This document shows, in pieces, positions 1 to 11,574 of a stretch of DNA of 11,574 nucleotides. This DNA is from Gloeobacterales cyanobacterium (lineage in GTDB: Bacteria > Cyanobacteriota > Cyanobacteriia > Gloeobacterales > PMM-0068): positions 1 to 11,574 of the forward strand of contig JBBRSB010000055.1 in assembly GCA_038245785.1 (NCBI GenBank), in the 5' to 3' direction. The notes under the pieces were generated by a model that saw only the letters and a program-made list of their open reading frames with translations, did not search any database and was not told the DNA's origin. Numbering within the stretch: the first letter of the stretch is position 1; each line of letters begins with the position of its first letter. A program made the translations under genes and the position numbers.

Positions 1-1773
1 CAGATCCTCCATTGCGCGAACTAAGTGCAGATGATCCTCATGGGTGCGGACGGCTAACCGAAAAAAGGCACCTTCGCCCTTAAAGCGACTAGAGACATCT
101 TTAATATAGATAGAGCGGTTGGTAAGGAGCGTTTCCGCCAGGGCTTGGGCAGAACTCCGGTTCAGATGCAGTTTGACGAGCAGAAAGTTACCACCACTGG
201 CAAACACCTTAGCGACAAAGGGTAGGGTCTCTAGCATCTCAGCAAATTGCACTCGATCTCTGGCTGTGGATTGGAACGAAGTAGCGATCGCTTCCCGATG
301 TTTGAGGATGATTTCCAGAAAATGTTCAGCAAGGGAGTTGAGATTCCAGATCGGAAGATGACGGTGCATGAAGAGATTAAACTCAGCATTCAAGGAGTAG
401 GTATAGCCGAGGCGAAGTCCTGGAACCCCAAGCGTTTTGCTCAGACTTTTAAGCAGAATGACATTGGCTAAGGGCCGCTCTTCTAGCAACACCATCACGC
501 TGGGCTGATCGGCAAAGTCAATAAACGATTCGTCTACTATCAGCCATTTCTCTGGATGGTTTTCGGCAAAGTTATAGATCCAGTCCGAGGGCAAGAGCGT
601 ACCGGTTGGATTATTGGGGTTTACGAAGACAATTACCTCGGCATCCTGTGCCAGGGGTAGAAATAGATCGAGATCGAAGCCGATTTCATCCCAGTATTCA
701 GATGCTGTCGGAAACATACGCTGATATTCGCCAAAGGTCGGGCAAGGAATCAGTACCCGTCGGCCTGCAAAAAACTGTTTTAACACCGGAAATGCTTGGG
801 AGGCCCCATTTAAAGCTATACAGCGTTCGGGTTGGCAGAGGAGATAGTACGAAAGTTTTCGATCGAGCAGGGTTTGCGTTGACCCATAGTTATGGAGGAG
901 AGATGGTAATGCATTCCGTAATTCTGAAAGAACACTTCCGGTCGGAAAGTACATATTGCGAAGAAAACAAAAGTCTAGAACTTCATAGTTCCAATAGCTC
1001 CCCTGCGAACGCTGGAGTGAAGAATAGCGTTGATCGGCTTCGAATGTATAGCGAGCGGAATCTAGATCATTGGGGTCGTCCAGCTCTGCCCAGCGCTCAT
1101 TCTGGAGAATGGCGGCATGGATCACCTCTTGTTGCATGGTAATAATAATGCCGAGGATTGCCTCGTAGTAACAGTTTGAATCGATTGCCTTGGCATAGTA
1201 GGTAATCAATCGTTTAAAGGAACCCGAACAAAATGCCTGAGAGAATTTATAGATATTCAGCGTTTTATATTTGTCCGCAAAATTAAAGTCAGATCCCTGC
1301 AGATGAGGCGGAATCACACTCCTAACGACGCCATCTACGACCGTGACAACCGTACCATCCATACCACTCCGATAGCGATCGAGGAGCGCAACATTGGGAT
1401 CGGGCGATGCAAATAATCTGTTAAATACCGATCGCTCAACGACTAAATCACTCTCAATCAACACAATATCGCCATCCATGGGCACTTGTTCCAGGGCTAA
1501 GGCCAGGGAATAGATGTTGTTGGTTTCCGCATAGCGATCGTTATGGACAAATAAGAAATCCAGGTCGGGATAAAGCTCAAGCGCATGCTGGCGGATTTCT
1601 TCAGCCCGATAGCCTGTGACGATTGCAACGTTTGTGACGCCGTGGGCAATCAACATATCAATTAATCGTCCTAGCAACGTGCGGTCGCCAATTTTCAGGA
1701 GTGATTTATGGGTTGTAAGCGTCAAGGGGCGCATGCGTCGCCCAATACCTGCTGCCAAGATAATTGCTCGCAT
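1..1773 (-). CDS. Bifunctional nucleotidyltransferase (LicC/phosphocholine cytidylyltransferase-like) plus class I/II PLP enzyme (CobD/HisC-like); 3' end lies just outside the window
   Basis: Translated by hand from ATG 1773, with no stop found before base 1. N-terminal NTP-transferase motifs: MRAIILAAGIGRRMRPLT..HKSLLKIG, YAETNNIYSL, IESDLV, WAELDDPNDL. PLP-domain motifs: PTFGEY, VNPNNPTG, VDESFIDF, KSLSKTLGVPGLRLGY (PLP lysine), PIWNLNS, FRLAVRT. Confidence 0.9.
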   Translation of the reverse strand, partial: MRAIILAAGIGRRMRPLTLTTHKSLLKIGDRTLLGRLIDMLIAHGVTNVAIVTGYRAEEIRQHALELYPDLDFLFVHNDRYAETNNIYSLALALEQVPMDGDIVLIESDLVVERSVFNRLFASPDPNVALLDRYRSGMDGTVVTVVDGVVRSVIPPHLQGSDFNFADKYKTLNIYKFSQAFCSGSFKRLITYYAKAIDSNCYYEAILGIIITMQQEVIHAAILQNERWAELDDPNDLDSARYTFEADQRYSSLQRSQGSYWNYEVLDFCFLRNMYFPTGSVLSELRNALPSLLHNYGSTQTLLDRKLSYYLLCQPERCIALNGASQAFPVLKQFFAGRRVLIPCPTFGEYQRMFPTASEYWDEIGFDLDLFLPLAQDAEVIVFVNPNNPTGTLLPSDWIYNFAENHPEKWLIVDESFIDFADQPSVMVLLEERPLANVILLKSLSKTLGVPGLRLGYTYSLNAEFNLFMHRHLPIWNLNSLAEHFLEIILKHREAIATSFQSTARDRVQFAEMLETLPFVAKVFASGGNFLLVKLHLNRSSAQALAETLLTNRSIYIKDVSSRFKGEGAFFRLAVRTHEDHLHLVRAMEDL

Positions 1774-1779
1774 CGGTAA

Positions 1780-2663
<884 letters not shown>

Positions 2664-2756
2664 AATTTTCCCATGGTGAAGAAGGATACAAGCAATCTGA
2701 CTGGATTGCCGATCTGCTCAATAATTTAGTTATTCTTCCCCCTCTAACTTTGGTAC

Positions 2757-3767
2757 ATGATGGCGATCATTCAATTAACTTCAGCTCCCTCTATGGATAG
2801 CGTGATATTTCCTAGAACGCGCACTTCACTGCGAGATCTAGCTGTCTGGATTAAAGAAGGAATTCTACTCGGCAATACTTTTCATTATCGCAAAAAGAAT
2901 CGCTGGATTCATAACTTCATTAATCTTTCCGTTCTAAGTTTAATTGGATTGGGCATTATCCAGTTGTCTTTACTTTCGGTAATTTTGCCGTTAGCAATTT
3001 ATTTGCCTATCGCTATTTTTTGCTTTGGAATTCTTCAGTTCATGCTGTTCATTCTCGTTGTGCATGAAGCCTCCCATAACATGTTTATCCTATCAAAAAG
3101 CAGCAAGCGATCGCTATTTTGGAATCGCCTGTTTGGATGGACTATCGCCACCTTTTATGGCTTGGAGTACGGTAAGCATTGGGAAGTCGGACACCAGGTG
3201 CATCACTATGACACGATCGAAGACAACGATCCTCAAAACTGCTCGAATACCATCTATTCGGGTCCAGCTTTGTTTGCCTATACCTTCAAAGTTTTATTAA
3301 TGCCTGGTTATTGCCAGTTTTTTCGTAAGTATGATCAGTGTGACGCACCCAAATATTATGGTCTGAATCCAACGTTACTGGCTGGACAAGTCATGCTCTG
3401 GGTATTATTTATTGCGGTTTCAATTTTGTATTTAAGTTGGGCAGTTCCGGTGGCCGTATTTTGGGGTATTCAAGTTGTTTCAGCCCTGAATCAATTCAAG
3501 ATTGCGATGGAGCATGGGGGTGAAATCGGTCGGCGCGAGCAGCCATTTTTGCGATCGTGCAGTTCCTTCTTTCCTTTGCGCTGGCTGTTGATGCCGTTGA
3601 ACATCTCGCTTCACTTCGAGCATCATCTTAATTATTGCGTTCCTTGGTACGATCTCATGAACTATCACCATGCATTAGAGAAAATTGTTCCCCGAGAAAT
3701 ACGCTCTCAAGTCTTCCATTATGACTTTGAAGTTTGGCAGCAAATCAACGAAAATAAACAGATATAG
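2757..3767 (+). CDS. Membrane fatty acid desaturase family protein
   Basis: Three His boxes (HEASH, HQVHH, HFEHH) and two long hydrophobic segments. The start could also be 2760 or the later Met (MDSVIF). Confidence 0.85.
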   Translation: MMAIIQLTSAPSMDSVIFPRTRTSLRDLAVWIKEGILLGNTFHYRKKNRWIHNFINLSVLSLIGLGIIQLSLLSVILPLAIYLPIAIFCFGILQFMLFILVVHEASHNMFILSKSSKRSLFWNRLFGWTIATFYGLEYGKHWEVGHQVHHYDTIEDNDPQNCSNTIYSGPALFAYTFKVLLMPGYCQFFRKYDQCDAPKYYGLNPTLLAGQVMLWVLFIAVSILYLSWAVPVAVFWGIQVVSALNQFKIAMEHGGEIGRREQPFLRSCSSFFPLRWLLMPLNISLHFEHHLNYCVPWYDLMNYHHALEKIVPREIRSQVFHYDFEVWQQINENKQI

Positions 3768-3778
3768 CGGTCAGCAAG

Positions 3779-3881
3779 ATAGCAGTCGCCAAGAACATGA
3801 GGACCTATGTGTCGGAGATGTTCCAACAGTTTAAACTCTCAACATGTAACGGTCTTAACAGCTCTGTCCATGGCTATAACT
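3779..3881. repeat. Degenerate ~100-bp repeat, copy 1 (MITE-like, decayed terminal inverted repeats)
   Basis: Aligns end to end with 4009-4107: ATAGCAGTCGCyAAGAACATkAGGA...ATGTAACGGTCTTA...TCTGTCCATkGCTAwAACT. Confidence 0.75.
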
Positions 3882-4008
3882 TTTTTTCTGCACCTGCTCA
3901 TGTTCTGAAACAATTTTCAAAATGTTCACAAGTGATACATTCTGAAACCTGCTCAGGGAGGGGGTTTAGTTTGTCGTCATAACGAAAAAACCTGTCGAAG
4001 TTATAAAT

Positions 4009-4107
4009 ATAGCAGTCGCTAAGAACATTAGGATCTATTTGTTGTGAGATATTCTGGCAGCTCAAGCACTTAAGATGTAACGGTCTTATCTGTCCATTGC
4101 TAAAACT
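4009..4107. repeat. Degenerate ~100-bp repeat, copy 2 (5-bp deletion relative to copy 1)
   Basis: Direct repeat of 3779-3881, starting 230 bp downstream of it. Confidence 0.75.
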
Positions 4108-5384: not shown

Positions 5385-5419
5385 AAAAAGAAAAAAGCTT
5401 GGTCTTACGGGACCAAGCT
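5385..5419 (-). terminator. Rho-independent terminator downstream of the APC permease
   Basis: Minus strand reads AGCTTGGTC-CCGTAA-GACCAAGCT followed by TTTTTCTTTTT, about 23 bp after the permease stop. Confidence 0.85.
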
Positions 5420-5442: not shown

Positions 5443-6876
5443 TCAAACTTTTCTAAGCTCTGTGAACTTAAGATCTATCGCTTCTAAGTCTCGTTCCATC
5501 TCCTCAACCATCTGAGGGGAACGACTGCGCAGAAAGAGAAACCAGCCTACGCCAATCGCCATATAGACCAAGAATAGGTAGGGAAAAACGTTGTAGGGAG
5601 CAGCAGGTACAGGATAAACACTGCCGACGACCGGAACCATCATGAAAAGAACGGCTAGAGCAGAAACAGCGATGTCCCAGGGCTTAAGACTACTTTCACG
5701 CTTGAGGTAGACCGGAGCCGCTACAGAAATCAAGATATAGCAGACCAAGAAACCATAGGTGGCAATCGTTCCGGTATAGCCATAAATATCAAGAACCTTG
5801 ATTCCAGCCAGCGATAGCAAGGCCGGAAGAGAGAAGACCATCAGGGCTGCAACCGTTGCGGCAATATGGGGCGTTTCATTGACGGTATGGGCGGACCCCA
5901 TAGAGTTGGGGAAAATGCCATGACGACTCATAGAGAACAAGACCCGTGAAGCAGCATTGATACTAGCGAGGGTACAGGCGAACAAACTGACCATAGCTGC
6001 GACAGAAATGACGACTCCGAGGAAGCCTGCTCCCGCAATAGAGGAGAGCACATTTAGAGGGGCTTCCGTTTTATCTAAAGTGGTTTTATAGCCTTGGAAT
6101 CCAAGCACCATCACATAGGACATAACAATGAAAAAAGAACCAGAAATGACCGTGCTCAAAATTACAGACCGAGGGATGAATTTGAGAGGCTCTTTCGCTT
6201 CATCGCCTAAAGCGGTAGCACTTTCAAATCCGACATAGCTAAAGACAGCCAGCACCAATCCCAAGCCTAAACCACTGGGGGTAACTCCTTGGAGCGTAAG
6301 CTGAGCCGTATCAACGGCGAAGTTCTTATTCGTGAGCACAAATGCCGCTAGGATTAGAATCAGTCCAACGGCCCCTGCTTCAATGCCCAGCATCAAGACG
6401 GTAGATAAGCGAATATCTTTATAGGCACAAAACCAGGCAGCGCTGATACAGACAAGAAGCAGCAAAATTGCGGGGGCTTGGATACCGACCAGCCCCAATA
6501 AGATATTGCCATAGTTGGCAAAACCAGAAGCTACGGCCATAGCGGTGAAGAGATAGCCGAGAACCAATCCCCACCCGGCAGTCACTCCAGCCATTGGTCC
6601 CAGTCCTCTAGAAGTGTAGGCATAGAGAGAACCAGGAGAAGCAGAACGTTGAGCAAACTGATTGATATTTAAACTCACAAAGACCAAGCCAATAGTCGCA
6701 ATTACATAGGCAAGCCAGCTACCGTTTCCCGTGCTGGCATAGACCAAGGCTAAGTTCACCGTTGGCGTGAGAGTCGGCGCAATATTAGCAATCGATTGGG
6801 CTAAGACTTCTGGAAAAGGAAGACATTGAGATCTAAGTCCAGATTTCGTAGGTTTAGGAGTTGTTGTAATAGTCAT
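5443..6876 (-). CDS. APC-family amino acid/amine permease
   Basis: About 12 hydrophobic segments, with LAQSIANIAPT in TM1, GSLYAY, FSYVGFESATALGDEAKEP in TM6, and SRVLFSMSRHG..P. Confidence 0.92.
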   Translation of the reverse strand: MTITTTPKPTKSGLRSQCLPFPEVLAQSIANIAPTLTPTVNLALVYASTGNGSWLAYVIATIGLVFVSLNINQFAQRSASPGSLYAYTSRGLGPMAGVTAGWGLVLGYLFTAMAVASGFANYGNILLGLVGIQAPAILLLLVCISAAWFCAYKDIRLSTVLMLGIEAGAVGLILILAAFVLTNKNFAVDTAQLTLQGVTPSGLGLGLVLAVFSYVGFESATALGDEAKEPLKFIPRSVILSTVISGSFFIVMSYVMVLGFQGYKTTLDKTEAPLNVLSSIAGAGFLGVVISVAAMVSLFACTLASINAASRVLFSMSRHGIFPNSMGSAHTVNETPHIAATVAALMVFSLPALLSLAGIKVLDIYGYTGTIATYGFLVCYILISVAAPVYLKRESSLKPWDIAVSALAVLFMMVPVVGSVYPVPAAPYNVFPYLFLVYMAIGVGWFLFLRSRSPQMVEEMERDLEAIDLKFTELRKV

Positions 6877-6900: not shown

Positions 6901-6934
6901 AGAGGTAACCGCAGAAGCAAGCTGCGATTACTCT
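6901..6934 (-). other. Intergenic RNA hairpin between the amine oxidase and permease genes
   Basis: mRNA reads AGAGUAAUCGCAG-cuugcuu-CUGCGGUUACCUCU. It has one U-G wobble that pairs only on the minus strand and one bulge. Confidence 0.55.
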
Positions 6935-6971
6935 ATTTCACTTGTAATAACAAGCATGTAGCGAATGTTAC
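6930..6971 (-). promoter_or_regulatory. NtcA-type promoter of the permease: NtcA box 6958-6971, palindrome 6941-6954, -10 TAGAGT 6935-6930
   Basis: Minus strand reads GTAACATTCGCTAC ATG CTTGTTATTACAAG TGAAA TAGAGT, an exact match to GTA-N8-TAC-N22-TAN3T. Confidence 0.8.
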
Positions 6972-8911
6972 GAATGGCTATGGCAGTTGCTCTTTTTGTG
7001 CATAGAAGGAGGCACATCGGTGGCCGGACTGCTATCAAAAAAGCCTACGGGTTTGAGCATAAAACCGATATAGGCCGTAGGCATCACGGGCCAATCTTCT
7101 GGACGGGGAACATGGTGATGGCCAAAGGTGTACCAAACCACTACGTTGGTGTCTGTAATTGGGCGGTTGGCTTGGGTCCAAGCGGGTAATCCTTGGCCCC
7201 CAGGACTCTGGTTCGGATATTCTCCAGCGGGATAGCGCTCATCGGCACTGTAGGGGGTTGCCCAGAGGTGTTTGGTCATGAAACCTGCCCGCTTGAGCAC
7301 GCTGGATTCGGGATGGGCAAAGGGCAGAATATTCTCCCCAGGCATCAACTTATAAGCGACGGGTTGGCCGACCGCGTTAAGCACGGAAGGATTGACGATT
7401 TTCCAGTATCGGGCGGACATCGGATCAATCGTGCGCTGGGCTTGGGATTCTGTCGCTAAAAGAGTGGATTTCGCAAAAAAGGCATTGCCATGAGGATTTT
7501 CTGGCCCCATTGGTTCTGCTTCCGTATTCACTTCGTACACCGAGTTCTGCAGGCCCTCCACGCTCATATCCAAACGAACATTGAAGAAATGTTGGTGTAC
7601 TGGGGCATTGAGCTGAGGAGCAATGAGGGAGCCATACTTAGGCGTTTCACCGGGCATCATCGCTCCAGTATTGAGCATGCCCGTTAGTTTTACTTCGTAC
7701 TGGATCGTTCCATCCTGATAGAAGTACCAGAAAAAACCATACTCATAGTTGCCGACGGTAGAAACGAAGGAAACCACCAAGCGCCGAGAACGCCTCACTT
7801 CCGTCTGTTCTGTGCGCCAGTCCATATGCTTCCAGAGAATACCGTAGTCTTCTTCATGCATACAGACCGCATTTTCAATCGTCACAACCTGGCCGCGACT
7901 GTTCGTCATCACCGCATCAAAGTAGCGGATCACGCCCAGGCAATCGCATCCCAGTTTGAGGGAGTTTGCCAAGGTGCCAATGCCGTACTCCCCGACATCA
8001 AAGGCATTTTTGCGGAAGTGAAAGGGCCTGGGGTCACCATAGGGCACCACCATTTCTGCCAGAGAAGCGCGGTAGAGGATTGGGCGCAGGCGGCCCTGGT
8101 CTGCGTAGCCAATCGTATAGAGCACCAAACCTTCGCGGGGGGTGAAGCCAAGGCGAAACTGCCATTTTTGCCAGCGGACCTGATGGCCTTGCACCTCGAA
8201 GCTCGGACCTTCGGGCTGGACAATTTCTAGGGGTTGAACGTCTGTACGCAGGTCCTGGATAAATTCGGGGGTATAGTTCCCAGGATTGGGCGGCAGGGGC
8301 ACGACGCCATAGTCTTCGACCCTGAGCACCTGCATCGTATTCAGATCTACGACCGGGACCACGCCTTCAATCGGTCGCGCATAGCCATTGTCCGTAGGGC
8401 TAGAACGGACCCAGCAGAGGGCTCGGCTCAAACGCTTTCCCTCCTCATCCTCAAAACCAAAGTTTCCGGCAGACCAGGGGTCTACCATCACCAGGTCTGG
8501 ATTGGTAATGCCCCGTCGTTCCAGGGCAGCACGGAAGTCAGGATTGGCTTTGACAGCATTCTCACATTCAATAAATTCATCGAGCATGATTGGAGGCTGC
8601 ACCCCGTCCACTTTTTTCCAAGAGGTAACCGTACCGTCTGTCAGAGAAACAATCGCTTCGTAGGTGGTGGCTGTGGCGTTGTCCAAGAGAATGGCAAAAG
8701 CCTCGCGCTGGATAGCCTCTTCCTGTTCAAAATTTAGGACCACGGACTTTGGCGGCTCATGCAGGACGACGGTGGCAAAGCGCACGCGCCCACTAAGCGG
8801 ATAATCGGCCCGCAGAACACGTACCGCTCTGGCAATTTCTTCTGCCGTAAGCGGGTCAAGCGGATGCTGGGCTAAGGTCACGTTGGTGGGAGGAATGCGT
8901 ACGCTCGTCAT
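6968..8911 (-). CDS. tynA: Copper-containing (TPQ) primary amine oxidase
   Basis: TPQ consensus STVGNYEY, catalytic Asp in NAFDVGEYG, GCDCLG, Cu ligands HQH and HVPRPEDWPVMP, N-terminal HPLDPLT. No obvious signal peptide. Confidence 0.95.
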   Translation of the reverse strand: MTSVRIPPTNVTLAQHPLDPLTAEEIARAVRVLRADYPLSGRVRFATVVLHEPPKSVVLNFEQEEAIQREAFAILLDNATATTYEAIVSLTDGTVTSWKKVDGVQPPIMLDEFIECENAVKANPDFRAALERRGITNPDLVMVDPWSAGNFGFEDEEGKRLSRALCWVRSSPTDNGYARPIEGVVPVVDLNTMQVLRVEDYGVVPLPPNPGNYTPEFIQDLRTDVQPLEIVQPEGPSFEVQGHQVRWQKWQFRLGFTPREGLVLYTIGYADQGRLRPILYRASLAEMVVPYGDPRPFHFRKNAFDVGEYGIGTLANSLKLGCDCLGVIRYFDAVMTNSRGQVVTIENAVCMHEEDYGILWKHMDWRTEQTEVRRSRRLVVSFVSTVGNYEYGFFWYFYQDGTIQYEVKLTGMLNTGAMMPGETPKYGSLIAPQLNAPVHQHFFNVRLDMSVEGLQNSVYEVNTEAEPMGPENPHGNAFFAKSTLLATESQAQRTIDPMSARYWKIVNPSVLNAVGQPVAYKLMPGENILPFAHPESSVLKRAGFMTKHLWATPYSADERYPAGEYPNQSPGGQGLPAWTQANRPITDTNVVVWYTFGHHHVPRPEDWPVMPTAYIGFMLKPVGFFDSSPATDVPPSMHKKSNCHSHS

Positions 8912-8944
8912 CGATAGGCCCCTAAAGTGAGTACGGTAGGCTGC

Positions 8945-8986
8945 ATTCTCACCTTCCTGTCATAACAAGTTAGTAGAAAATGCTAC
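8945..8986 (-). promoter_or_regulatory. NtcA-type promoter of the amine oxidase: NtcA box 8973-8986, palindrome 8956-8969, weak -10 GAGAAT 8950-8945
   Basis: Minus strand reads GTAGCATTTTCTAC TAA CTTGTTATGACAGG AAGGT GAGAAT. Confidence 0.72.
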
Positions 8987-8999
8987 GGAATCTTAGCGA

Positions 9000-10328
9000 T
9001 TAACAGTTCAGGTAGTGTTCCATCTCCCAGGGCGTCACCTGGACATGATGTTGAGCCAATTCTTGATACTTCAAATCTAGATAGGTCTTCGCGCCCATCT
9101 CACTTAGCATCGCCATCAGCAGAGGGTCCTGCTCCAGGCAACGCAGGGCTTCTCCTAAACTGGTCGGCAGCGTTTGCAGGTCAGAAAATTCTGCGCCTCG
9201 GACAAACATATTTTCATCCAGCCGCTCACCCGGATGCAGGTGTTCTTTCATTCCTTCCAGACCCGCCGCCAGCATCCCTGCTTCTGCTAAGTAGAGATTG
9301 ACAGCACCATCGACCAAGCGGCACTCAAAGCGTCCCCCTTCTGGAATACGAATCATGTGCGTACGGTTGTTACCCCCGTAGGAGATATAGCGAGGGCTCC
9401 ACGTACTTCCAGAGTGCGTCATCGTCGCATCCAGCCGCTTATAGGAATTCACCGTCGGGCTACAGAGGGAAGTAAGTCCCCGCCCATGGGCCAAGAGACC
9501 GCCCAGGAATTCATAGGCCAGGGGTGAGAGGCCCATTTCATCGCTATCCTCGGCAAAAGCATTCTGCCCCCGCTTATCCCAAAGACTCATGTGCACATGC
9601 GCCCCATTGCCGGTCAGATGGCTAAAGGGTTTGGGCATGAAGGTGGCGGTCAGCCCCCGTTGCTCAGCCAGGGTTTTAACCATGTATTTGAAGAACACAT
9701 GGCGATCGGCGGTGACCAGAGCATCGTTGTAGGTCCAGTTGAGTTCAAACTGGCCGTTGGCATCTTCATGGTCGCACTGGTACGGCTCCCAACCCAGTTC
9801 TTCCATATAGCGGACTATGGTGGAAATGAAGTCAAACTGACGCATCAAATTCAGTTGGTCGTAGCAAGGACGGGCCGCCGTATCCAGTTCATCGGCCACC
9901 TGATAGCTCTGCCCCTGCTTCTTGACCAGCAGAAATTCGGCTTCTACTCCAGTTTTGTAGGCATAGCCCAGGGCTTCACAGCGACGAAGCACTTGTTTCA
10001 GCATCATCCGGGGCGCACTGGCAAAAGGTTTGCCTTCTAAATAAACTTCGCTGGCTACCCAGCCGACATTCGGTTGCCAGGGCAACACGATCAGGGAATT
10101 AGGGTCTGGTATGGCGGCAATATCAGGAGCATCTGGCCCCAGACCGAGATTGGAGGCAAAGGGAGCAAAAAAGGCACCAGCGGATTCAACGGCGCTGATT
10201 TTAGCGGCAGGAACCAACTTGGCACGAGTTCCACCTAAGAGATCGGTATAGGAAACAAGAAAAAAGTTAAGCTTTAGCTCCTTGGCCAACTCGGCCAGGG
10301 TACTGCCCTTGGTTAATGTGCTGACCAT
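9000..10328 (-). CDS. glnT: Type III glutamate--ammonia ligase family (GlnT / gamma-glutamylmethylamide synthetase GmaS-like)
   Basis: SYTDLLGGTRAKLVP, KTGVEAEFLL, PCYDQ, PYQCDHEDANGQFELNW, ALVTADRH.FFK, ATFMPKPF..LTGNG.H.H.S.W, NNRTHMIRIP, RFECRLVDG are characteristic of the GlnT/GmaS clade. Confidence 0.9.
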   Translation of the reverse strand: MVSTLTKGSTLAELAKELKLNFFLVSYTDLLGGTRAKLVPAAKISAVESAGAFFAPFASNLGLGPDAPDIAAIPDPNSLIVLPWQPNVGWVASEVYLEGKPFASAPRMMLKQVLRRCEALGYAYKTGVEAEFLLVKKQGQSYQVADELDTAARPCYDQLNLMRQFDFISTIVRYMEELGWEPYQCDHEDANGQFELNWTYNDALVTADRHVFFKYMVKTLAEQRGLTATFMPKPFSHLTGNGAHVHMSLWDKRGQNAFAEDSDEMGLSPLAYEFLGGLLAHGRGLTSLCSPTVNSYKRLDATMTHSGSTWSPRYISYGGNNRTHMIRIPEGGRFECRLVDGAVNLYLAEAGMLAAGLEGMKEHLHPGERLDENMFVRGAEFSDLQTLPTSLGEALRCLEQDPLLMAMLSEMGAKTYLDLKYQELAQHHVQVTPWEMEHYLNC

Positions 10329-10362
10329 CCCTATGACGCTCCGTCTGCTTCTGTCTGCTTTG

Positions 10363-10404
10363 AGTAAACCAAGCTTGTTATGACGAGTTTGTATCTAGAG
10401 ATAC
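10363..10404 (-). promoter_or_regulatory. NtcA-type promoter of glnT/gmaS: NtcA box 10391-10404, palindrome 10374-10387, weak -10 TTTACT 10368-10363
   Basis: Minus strand reads GTATCTCTAGATAC AAA CTCGTCATAACAAG CTTGG TTTACT. Confidence 0.72.
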
Positions 10405-10443
10405 GGGGGAGGCATATTGGAAAGAAGTATGGAGCAACCAGCC

Positions 10444-11424
10444 ATGGAAAAGCGACAGTTAGGCAAAGGCGGTCCATCGGTTTCCGCAATTGGACTGGGA
10501 TGTATGGGTATGTCGGATTTCTATGGTCCAGCAGATGACCAGGAGAGCATTGCGACAGTCAAAGCAGCGTTGGAAGAGGGAGTTACCTTTCTGGATACAG
10601 GGGATTTCTACGGCATGGGGCACAATGAGATGCTGCTGCGCGAGGCCCTAGGAGGACAGCGTGAGCAAGCATTTCTGTCTGTCAAGTTTGGTGCTCAACG
10701 TACCCCTAAGGGCGAGTTCATTGGCTTTGATGGACGACCCGCCGCTGTCAAGACCTCTCTGGCCTACAGTTTGCAGCGTCTAGGCACAGACTATATCGAT
10801 CTCTACCAGCCAGCCCGCATCGATCCGACGGTACCGATTGAAGAAACGATTGGGGCGATTGCTGAGATGGTTCAAGCAGGCTACGTCCGCCATATCGGCC
10901 TATCGGAAGCGTCTGTCCAGACTATTCGCCGTGCCCATGCGGTTCATCCAATTACGGCGTTGCAAATTGAGTACTCGCTGCTCTCCCGTGACATCGAGGC
11001 AGAGGTCTTACCGACCCTTCGCGAGTTGGGCATTGGCCTTGTCGCCTATGGAGTTCTCTCCCGTGGTTTGCTGAGTGATAGAAGCCATACTAACCCCGCT
11101 GCTGGAGACTTTCGGGCTTATCTGCCACGTTTTGCCGGGGATAACCTGAAGTCTAATCTGGCCCTGGTAGACGCGCTCAGGTCATTAGCGACCCAGAAGG
11201 GGGTAACTGTTGCCCAGATTGCCATTGCCTGGGTACTTGCCCGTGGAGAAGATATTGTGCCCCTAGTCGGTGCCCGTAAACGAGAGCGCCTGAGCGAGTC
11301 CCTGGCTGCTACCCAGATTCATCTGACCCCAGAGGAGATGACCCAAATCGAGGCTACCGTATCCCCGACAGCAGTGGCCGGAACACGCTACAGTGCAGAA
11401 CAGATGGCCATGCTGGATGGTTGA
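10444..11424 (+). CDS. Aldo/keto reductase
   Basis: [73 protein letters not shown] 10444 has GGAG upstream; alternative starts are 10429 and 10417. Confidence 0.92.
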
Positions 11425-11447
11425 GAGATCCCCCTCCTGAGTCTTGA

Positions 11448-11487
11448 ACCCCTCAGGCCCTACGGGCCAGCTCCCCTTAAGGGGAGC
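11448..11487. repeat. REP-like double hairpin downstream of the aldo/keto reductase
   Basis: ACCCCTCA, then GGCCC-TAC-GGGCC (11456-11468), A, then the perfect 18-bp palindrome GCTCCCCTTAAGGGGAGC (11470-11487). Confidence 0.65.
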
Positions 11488-11574
11488 CTCCTCTGGGGGC
11501 AGAAAGATAGTTTGGATTTGGGTGCAAACACTACCCAAGCGATAGTCCACGCTATCTACTGCTTGGATGCCTAA

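Follow-up and report, generated by a model that had tools for sequence, protein, structure and literature searches.

The window analysed here is an 11,574-bp stretch of DNA that forms the complete contig C55 of the genome of a Gloeobacterales cyanobacterium (G000; 5,008,344 bases, 98% complete). On its minus strand lie genes for a gamma-glutamylmethylamide synthetase-type enzyme, a copper amine oxidase and a permease, each preceded by a composite promoter in which a consensus box for the regulator NtcA is followed by a palindrome and a predicted -10 hexamer. These genes and promoter elements are as follows:

10391..10404, minus strand: NtcA consensus box GTA-N8-TAC of the gmaS promoter; exact match, with an NtcA-like box before 71/75 orthologues
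10374..10387, minus strand: predicted GntR (HutC/UTRA) operator CTCGTCATAACAAG of gmaS; same slot filled, at up to two mismatches, in 18/75 orthologous promoters
10363..10368, minus strand: predicted -10 TTTACT of gmaS, preceded by TG; resembles an extended -10, lacks A at -11, near-invariant in orthologues
9000..10328, minus strand: gmaS/glnT, gamma-glutamylmethylamide synthetase-type, 442 amino acids (TIGR03105, 587 bits against a cut-off of 469.6)
8973..8986, minus strand: NtcA consensus box of the amine oxidase promoter; exact match
8956..8969, minus strand: predicted operator CTTGTTATGACAGG of the amine oxidase; composite present before 4/30 orthologue loci
8945..8950, minus strand: predicted -10 GAGAAT of the amine oxidase; non-consensus at -12, the slot holding TAN3T in four orthologous composites
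6968..8911, minus strand: copper/topaquinone primary amine oxidase, 647 amino acids (PRK11504, 1017 bits against a cut-off of 651)
6958..6971, minus strand: NtcA consensus box of the permease promoter; exact match, overlapping the amine oxidase stop codon
6941..6954, minus strand: predicted operator CTTGTTATTACAAG of the permease; composite present before 1/29 homologue loci with enough upstream sequence
6930..6935, minus strand: predicted -10 TAGAGT of the permease; a perfect TAN3T
5443..6876, minus strand: APC-superfamily amino acid/amine permease, 477 amino acids (PF00324, PF13520)

The three composites share an identical 14-3-14-5-6 layout (NtcA box, gap, palindrome, gap, hexamer), and the positions and constant spacing described in an earlier note on this DNA held throughout, with every string present at its place on the minus strand. 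The geometry agrees with the class II NtcA-activated promoter, as the note had claimed, which is defined in the accessible part of PMC3898017 by GTA-N8-TAC, 22 nucleotides, and TAN3T, and an ntcA gene is found above cut-off in the source genome. The permease hexamer is, as also reported, the single perfect TAN3T of the three. A sigma-70 scan detected none of these promoters, as expected in the absence of a -35 element. The arms of the palindrome, given earlier as CTTGT-N4-ACAAG, stand, but its centre is not free, being yATr in most sites, which leads to the consensus CTTGTYATRACAAG (CTTGT-YATR-ACAAG).

The genome scan that had been proposed, with the pattern GTA-N8-TAC-N3-CTYGT-N4-ACARG, returned three matches in 5,008,344 bases, all of them inside the window and with palindromes of the form CTyGT-yATn-ACArG. 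Approximately 0.007 matches would be expected by chance from the 1398 NtcA cores and 52 loose palindromes of the source genome, although this figure is not a clean p-value, given that the pattern was taken from the same three sites. The operators are identical at 10/14, 11/14, and 12/14 positions in the three comparisons, whereas their 40-bp flanks share just 8-14/40 positions and the 5-bp spacers 0-1/5, so the composites are not a recent duplication.

The gene called glnT in the note can be refined to the GmaS type by TIGR03105 and by its best match in the PDB, 7CQL (RhGmaS; E = 2e-154). In the 7CQL alignment, read by eye and allowing for the 20-residue offset of the PDB chain, the product keeps Tyr147, Gln175, Asp177, Glu179, Glu186, Asn188, Lys30, and Arg312 of RhGmaS, in which the methylamine-pocket and catalytic residues are named in the accessible portion of PMC7948447. 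An Ala occupies the position of Asp50, the ammonia-binding Asp of glutamine synthetase (GS). The amine oxidase carries the motifs TVGNYEY (at residue 385), HQH, and GHHH, and its best PDB matches are phenylethylamine oxidases, while no NCBIfam family exceeded its cut-off for the permease.

A HutC-type regulator and the distribution of the palindrome

The earlier note had guessed that the palindrome was a GntR-family site, and had suggested looking for a GntR-family gene that accompanies the cluster. Four GntR domains lie above cut-off in the source genome, where the only UTRA match belongs to a GntR protein on a second contig, C35. This protein (245 amino acids; C35 7326-8063) is a member of the HutC subfamily and combines a winged helix-turn-helix (wHTH) with the UTRA domain (PF00392 and PF07702). 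Its gene is upstream of three adjacent mgsABC-like genes and divergent from the gene of a DAO-family flavoprotein (flavin oxidase). The three adjacent genes encode GATase II, GXGXG, and FMN-glutamate-synthase domains (PF13522, PF01493, and PF01645, respectively), and their domains and order suggest that they are mgsABC. A single DAO-family gene adjoins gntR, with no mgdABCD or heterotetrameric sarcosine-oxidase-type dehydrogenase identified by TIGR01372 in the source genome.

One copy of the palindrome, CTTGTTACAACAAG, is found before mgsA, where a one-mismatch NtcA box lies at a gap of 17 from the operator, and another lies in the gap between gntR and dao (C35 about 8165-8178), close to the regulator's own gene. 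In a scan of the source genome with an operator matrix, built from 61 intergenic sites of other genomes by means of a selection consensus drawn partly from the window sites, the top five places were taken by the three window sites together with the pair on C35. Given this choice of training sites, the informative part of the ranking is the position of the two C35 sites and the absence of other strong matches, those ranked lower, most of which fall in coding sequence or in unrelated regions, not being counted. A weaker palindrome, with a TTGTAATAACAA core, is located at C35 9591-9604, upstream of an OprB/SomB-type porin gene just after the DAO gene; it fits the loose pattern, with a matrix score below 11, and the porin is possibly a member of the regulon.

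The co-occurrence of motif and regulator was assessed in 201 cyanobacterial genomes, in which a match at E<=1e-40 defined the 46 GntR-positive genomes. The exact motif ACTTGTYATRACAAG was present in 27 genomes (its reversed control in 2/201), that is, in 26/46 GntR-positive genomes vs 1/155 GntR-negative ones, and the site of this sole exception is a gmaS/dao composite promoter. The GntR-family guess is thus borne out by a HutC/UTRA regulator that is flanked by the motif and accompanies it across genomes. A quick tree of 44 GntR sequences contains a 37-row clade, with the helix SEHQL..VSRIT(V/A/I)R and an adjacent operator in most rows, and a 7-row paralogue clade, with the helix SEFDL..VSRTT and an adjacent operator in 0/7. 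This paralogous UTRA GntR (L128-L130 and L133-L136) adjoins a different DAO/sarcosine-oxidase-like gene, with no such operator.

A total of 80 cyanobacterial gmaS loci were collected, and 75 were tested, once L042, L055, L058, L070, and L101 had been dropped for their short upstream DNA. An NtcA-like box precedes gmaS in 71 of the 75, with TG-n-TTTACT 22-23 nucleotides further on in most. An operator was called in the gmaS slot at up to two mismatches, 3 bp after the NtcA box, in 18 loci. These are distributed over 14/19 genomes with a close GntR, 0/40 with a distant GntR, and 4/16 with none found, where "close" denotes at least 57% identity, a threshold set after inspection of the data, and the identities of the split or broken gntR genes of G048, G069, and G099 were assigned by hand. 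In the gmaS tree, the distant-GntR group is mostly a single clade, and elsewhere the losses of the operator are scattered. Promoters of gmaS without the palindrome have an unchanged NtcA box and TTTACT. The gntR gene is present within 9/80 gmaS loci, and in each of L045 and L056, gmaS, dao, gntR, and mgsABC are all found at a single locus.

In the composites found before the orthologues of the amine oxidase (four loci) and the permease (one locus), the predicted slot always holds a perfect TAN3T. The 3-bp register recurs in relatives before gmaS, a GS-like gene, the amine oxidase, and the permease, and of 13 composites in metagenomes, nine stand before a gmaS, GS-like, or amine oxidase gene and four were not assigned to a gene. 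Among 110 distinct operator sites, an exact NtcA box lies at gap 3 in 27 and at gap 17 in four (nine with a relaxed box), with two or fewer exact boxes at every other gap. The 29 relaxed gap-3 cases comprise 16 gmaS, six GS-like, four amine oxidase, and one permease gene, together with two others. At gap 17, found mostly at mgsA, the operator covers the predicted -10. Cultured strains that carry the composite include Gloeocapsopsis crepidinum LEGE 06123 (L032) and Oculatella sp. LEGE 06141 (L051).

The close and the more distant GntR clades differ in their targets. In the source genome and the close clade, the operator stands before gmaS, mgsA, and dao. In most distant-clade rows, it lies directly upstream of gntR, between this gene and a pair of desaturase-like and MetX-like genes, and it is also found before GS-like, class I GATase, and PhyH/SBP (solute-binding protein) genes. 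In the distant-clade loci L137-L151, L156-L158, L164, and L168-L179, gntR is divergent from a fatty-acid-desaturase-family gene, which is followed by a MetX-like alpha/beta hydrolase gene (PRK07581-like), and these loci often contain two operators. A family of uncharacterised GS-like proteins of about 500 amino acids (L032:2298-3800 and its relatives), below all NCBIfam cut-offs, is likewise preceded by the composite, in clusters that also encode a family-3 solute-binding protein and a PhyH dioxygenase. In L154 and L155, the gene that follows a perfect operator encodes an MgdB/C-like sequence, the N-terminal half of a sarcosine oxidase alpha-like protein. The -10 of the gmaS and GS-like promoters (window 10363-10371; L032, L085, and L086) is TTTACT or TTwACT, which lacks the A at -11 and is preceded by TG or at least by a G at -14. 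This type of -10 is kept even where the operator has been lost, and it could indicate that the promoter depends strictly on NtcA or prefers a group 2 sigma factor.

The GntR was found in 0/13 other genomes of the window's order, whose gmaS-like genes do not exceed 54% identity to that of the window, vs 81% for Symplocastrum, which suggests horizontal acquisition in the source genome, although misbinning may be the explanation instead. A tblastn search of plasmids with the GntR gave only two matches, at 31% identity, both from Bacillales. A second TIGR03105-like clade (49-54% identity; G002-G030) occurs widely in cyanobacterial genomes that lack this GntR, some of them from the window's own order.

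Predicted mechanism and rival explanations

The palindrome is best interpreted as a conserved operator of the HutC-subfamily GntR of C35, through which this protein would repress the three predicted class II NtcA promoters, a reading that may be given a probability of roughly 0.8. The motif, its positions and spacing, the gene families, the conservation, and the co-occurrence are the observations behind it, while binding, regulatory sign, start sites, ligand, and substrates are predicted. Given that the gap-3 and gap-17 sites both lie in the footprint of RNA polymerase, and that promoters without the operator keep their NtcA box and -10 intact, a repressor released by a UTRA ligand can be inferred, and the position of the palindrome on the predicted -10 before mgsA also favours repression.

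Under nitrogen limitation, NtcA would bind approximately 41.5 bp upstream of the start, which is established for NtcA and predicted for these promoters, while a repressor dimer on the operator, at about -31 to -18, between the NtcA box and the -10, would block RNA polymerase. Transcription is predicted to begin near window positions 10356, 8938, and 6923. The binding of an amine-derived ligand to the UTRA domain would then release the repressor, so that expression would take place only when nitrogen is short and the inducer is present. The likeliest ligand, as a guess from the content of the regulon, would be gamma-glutamylmethylamide or N-methylglutamate. The permease would import amines, the copper oxidase would free ammonia from primary amines, and GmaS and MgsABC would process methylamine, with the flavin (DAO-family) oxidase possibly standing in for Mgd. 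The regulon would extend from the amine-cluster genes to the mgsABC-like genes, the flavin oxidase, and the regulator itself on C35. Odds of about one in two seem appropriate for the most complete version of this scheme, in which a glutamylated amine is the signal for a HutC-type repressor, NtcA promoters have repeatedly acquired the operator at one of two fixed registers (in the spacer or on the -10), a 42-bp gate responds to nitrogen starvation and amine together, and methylamine nitrogen is used through a variant N-methylglutamate pathway, with a single flavin oxidase replacing MgdABCD.

A number of points weigh against the proposed operator and its wider scheme. Two of the three hexamers of the window deviate from TAN3T, and 20/46 GntR-positive genomes, the source genome among them, lack the exact 15-bp pattern. 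The operator is missing from the gmaS slot in 5/19 close-GntR genomes and is retained in 4/16 genomes with no detected GntR, although all but one of the latter are metagenome-assembled and may be incomplete. The 0/40 result of the distant-GntR group is essentially one or two events in the tree, and the composite is missing from 26/30 amine oxidase loci and 28/29 permease loci. The matrix and the pattern derive in part from the same sites and genomes on which they were then tested, and the sampled genomes are related, some having also contributed to the pattern, so the counts overstate their independence. No soxA-family (MgdC-like; TIGR01372) gene lies above cut-off in the source genome, at 98% completeness, and in the distant clade most operators precede the desaturase-like/MetX-like pair and the GS-like, GATase, and PhyH/SBP genes, for which reason methylamine itself may not be the signal.

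This last point leads to the strongest of the alternatives, in which the GntR is a repressor whose ligand and substrate are not derived from methylamine, but from some other amine or N-substituted compound handled by gamma-glutamylation, the methylamine genes having been recruited in a single clade. Only the ligand separates this account from the one preferred here, and it is a tentative possibility, clearly the less probable of the two. The distant-clade operators before the desaturase-like/MetX-like pair, the 500-amino-acid GS-like gene, the class I GATase, and the PhyH/SBP genes, together with the phenylethylamine oxidases that are the best solved relatives of the oxidase, make other amines possible ligands, and RhGmaS itself accepts several amines, according to the part of PMC7948447 that is accessible. 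The operator before gmaS, mgsA, and dao in the source genome and the close clade, and a soxA-like gene in two genomes, are more consistent with a methylamine-derived ligand.

It is improbable that a different cyanobacterial factor binds the palindrome, with the GntR merely accompanying the cluster. Co-occurrence by itself is no proof of binding, and the motif is still present at four gmaS promoters where no GntR was detected in the genome, but it lies immediately upstream of gntR in most distant-clade rows, has the HutC spacing, matches the prediction for GntRs with the same helix, and is nearly absent from GntR-negative genomes. Slightly less probable still is co-activation, in which the same GntR would bind the palindrome and assist NtcA, compensating for weak -10 boxes, in the manner of NtcB, which acts as a co-activator with NtcA at the nir promoters. 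The fixed 3-bp register to the NtcA box could permit contact between the two proteins, and the hexamers before gmaS and the amine oxidase deviate from the consensus. Against this, the operator overlaps the predicted -10 at the gap-17 mgsA promoters, gmaS promoters that lack the palindrome keep both the NtcA box and TTTACT unchanged, and NagR/YvoA and DasR, the closest solved relatives of the GntR, carry the label of repressors. An origin of the motif by chance or as a side effect of promoter duplication, to which the location of all three sites within 3.5 kb might point, is effectively refuted by the conservation data, given that the flanks are unrelated and the motif is kept across many genera and different genes and tracks the GntR.

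Neighbouring features of the window

Two further features adjoin the amine cluster:

5396..5419, minus strand: terminator-like hairpin and T run 3' of the permease; found by pattern scan only, with six such hairpins vs 5.6 expected overall
10417..11424, plus strand: aldo/keto reductase (PF00248), divergent from gmaS; regulon membership uncertain

The same pattern scan found no hairpin of comparable strength between the three amine genes. A relative of the aldo/keto reductase, at 69% identity, lies inside the dao-gntR-mgs cluster of L056. Positions 1-3767 of the window contain a nucleotidyltransferase-aminotransferase fusion, an acyltransferase, and a desaturase-family gene, with no operator, and are apparently unrelated to the amine cluster. 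The desaturase (2757-3767) was rejected as a member of the regulon, with 23% identity to the desaturase-like gene of the regulon and no operator. At 3776-4107, there are two diverged direct copies of about 105 bp, 78% identical and with a relative on C54, which resemble decayed small open reading frames.

A 141-bp repeat (11434-11574) forms the end of the contig. Copies identical to it, or nearly so, occur on C38, C24, and C6 as well as at the end of C35; a diverged one (C35 3636-3799) lies immediately 3' of the mgsC-like gene, and shorter relatives are numerous. The repeat probably represents a small mobile or REP-like element by which the assembly was interrupted, and the joining of C55 to C35 through this shared end was ruled out, the sequence being a dispersed repeat.

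Relation to known systems

The literature searched contained no description of a cyanobacterial amine regulon, of an NtcA-nested GntR operator, or of this HutC-type GntR, which is present in about one fifth of the sampled genomes; RegPrecise, the bioRxiv supplements, and most subscription papers were outside the search and may hold the regulon. The motif had no main-text occurrence in a relevant paper, being found only in the supplement of PMC4494728, and the accessible part of PMC5023230 adds nothing further on regulation. The note, which did not recognise the operator from described cyanobacterial regulons, needs the addition that the motif had already been predicted for the proteobacterial PhnR2 proteins. 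The present analysis names a candidate regulator, an operator, and a regulon for the use of amine nitrogen in cyanobacteria, and the question of whether methylamine or other amines serve these organisms as a nitrogen source becomes directly testable in the cultured strains that carry the composite. The predicted pathway-specific repressor site inside the class II NtcA spacer could also serve cyanobacterial engineering as a compact two-input promoter.

The window promoters share with the class II NtcA promoter three exact GTA-N8-TAC boxes (3/3), the 22 nucleotides before the hexamer, and an association with nitrogen-scavenging genes, but here the 22-nucleotide spacer holds a 14-bp palindrome at a fixed register, and 2/3 hexamers are not TAN3T. 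With the HutC operators, whose usual spacing is GT-N4-AC in the accessible part of PMC4494728, the palindrome shares this core, although its centre differs from the consensus GTMTAKAC and equals that predicted for PhnR2 and GamR in the same source.

The closest resemblance is to the "PhnR2" GntRs of the HutC subfamily (PA2299, PP_0204, and BCAL2048), for which the motif ACTTGTYATRACAAGT was predicted computationally in 19 rows of the supplement of Suvorova et al. 2015 (PMC4494728), as far as this is accessible. The motif is essentially identical, and the helix VSRITVR and the HutC wHTH are shared (compared by eye), a likeness at the level of motif and recognition helix. All 19 rows are, however, proteobacterial. 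According to the accessible part of bioRxiv 2022.01.11.475908, PP_0204 acts locally on an oxidoreductase and a ferredoxin and is linked to a sulfur iModulon; it has neither NtcA nor amine genes, whereas the cyanobacterial targets are amine and gamma-glutamyl genes. NagR/YvoA, DasR, and GamR are also HutC-subfamily repressors, the best solved relative of the C35 GntR being 4U0V (E = 8e-31), and the motif core TTGTTATAACAA is predicted for GamR of Bacillus in the accessible supplement of PMC4494728, but these proteins are distant in sequence and control the amino-sugar regulons of Firmicutes and Actinobacteria.

In Ruegeria pomeroyi, the gmaS-mgsABC genes are likewise regulated targets, and the effector is thought to be a downstream catabolite, although the activator of gmaS-mgs is the AraC protein TmaR, while the GntR protein TmoR represses only tmm, and neither NtcA nor a copper amine oxidase is mentioned in the accessible part of the source (PMC13390433). 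The characterised cyanobacterial GntRs, PlmA and PMM1637, share the GntR wHTH in the sources available, but PlmA belongs to a separate subfamily, and the C35 protein differs in its UTRA domain and its patchy distribution (46/201 genomes). The NtcA promoter, the HutC operator, and the N-methylglutamate pathway are each already known, and it is their combination, and the host in which this is found, that are new.

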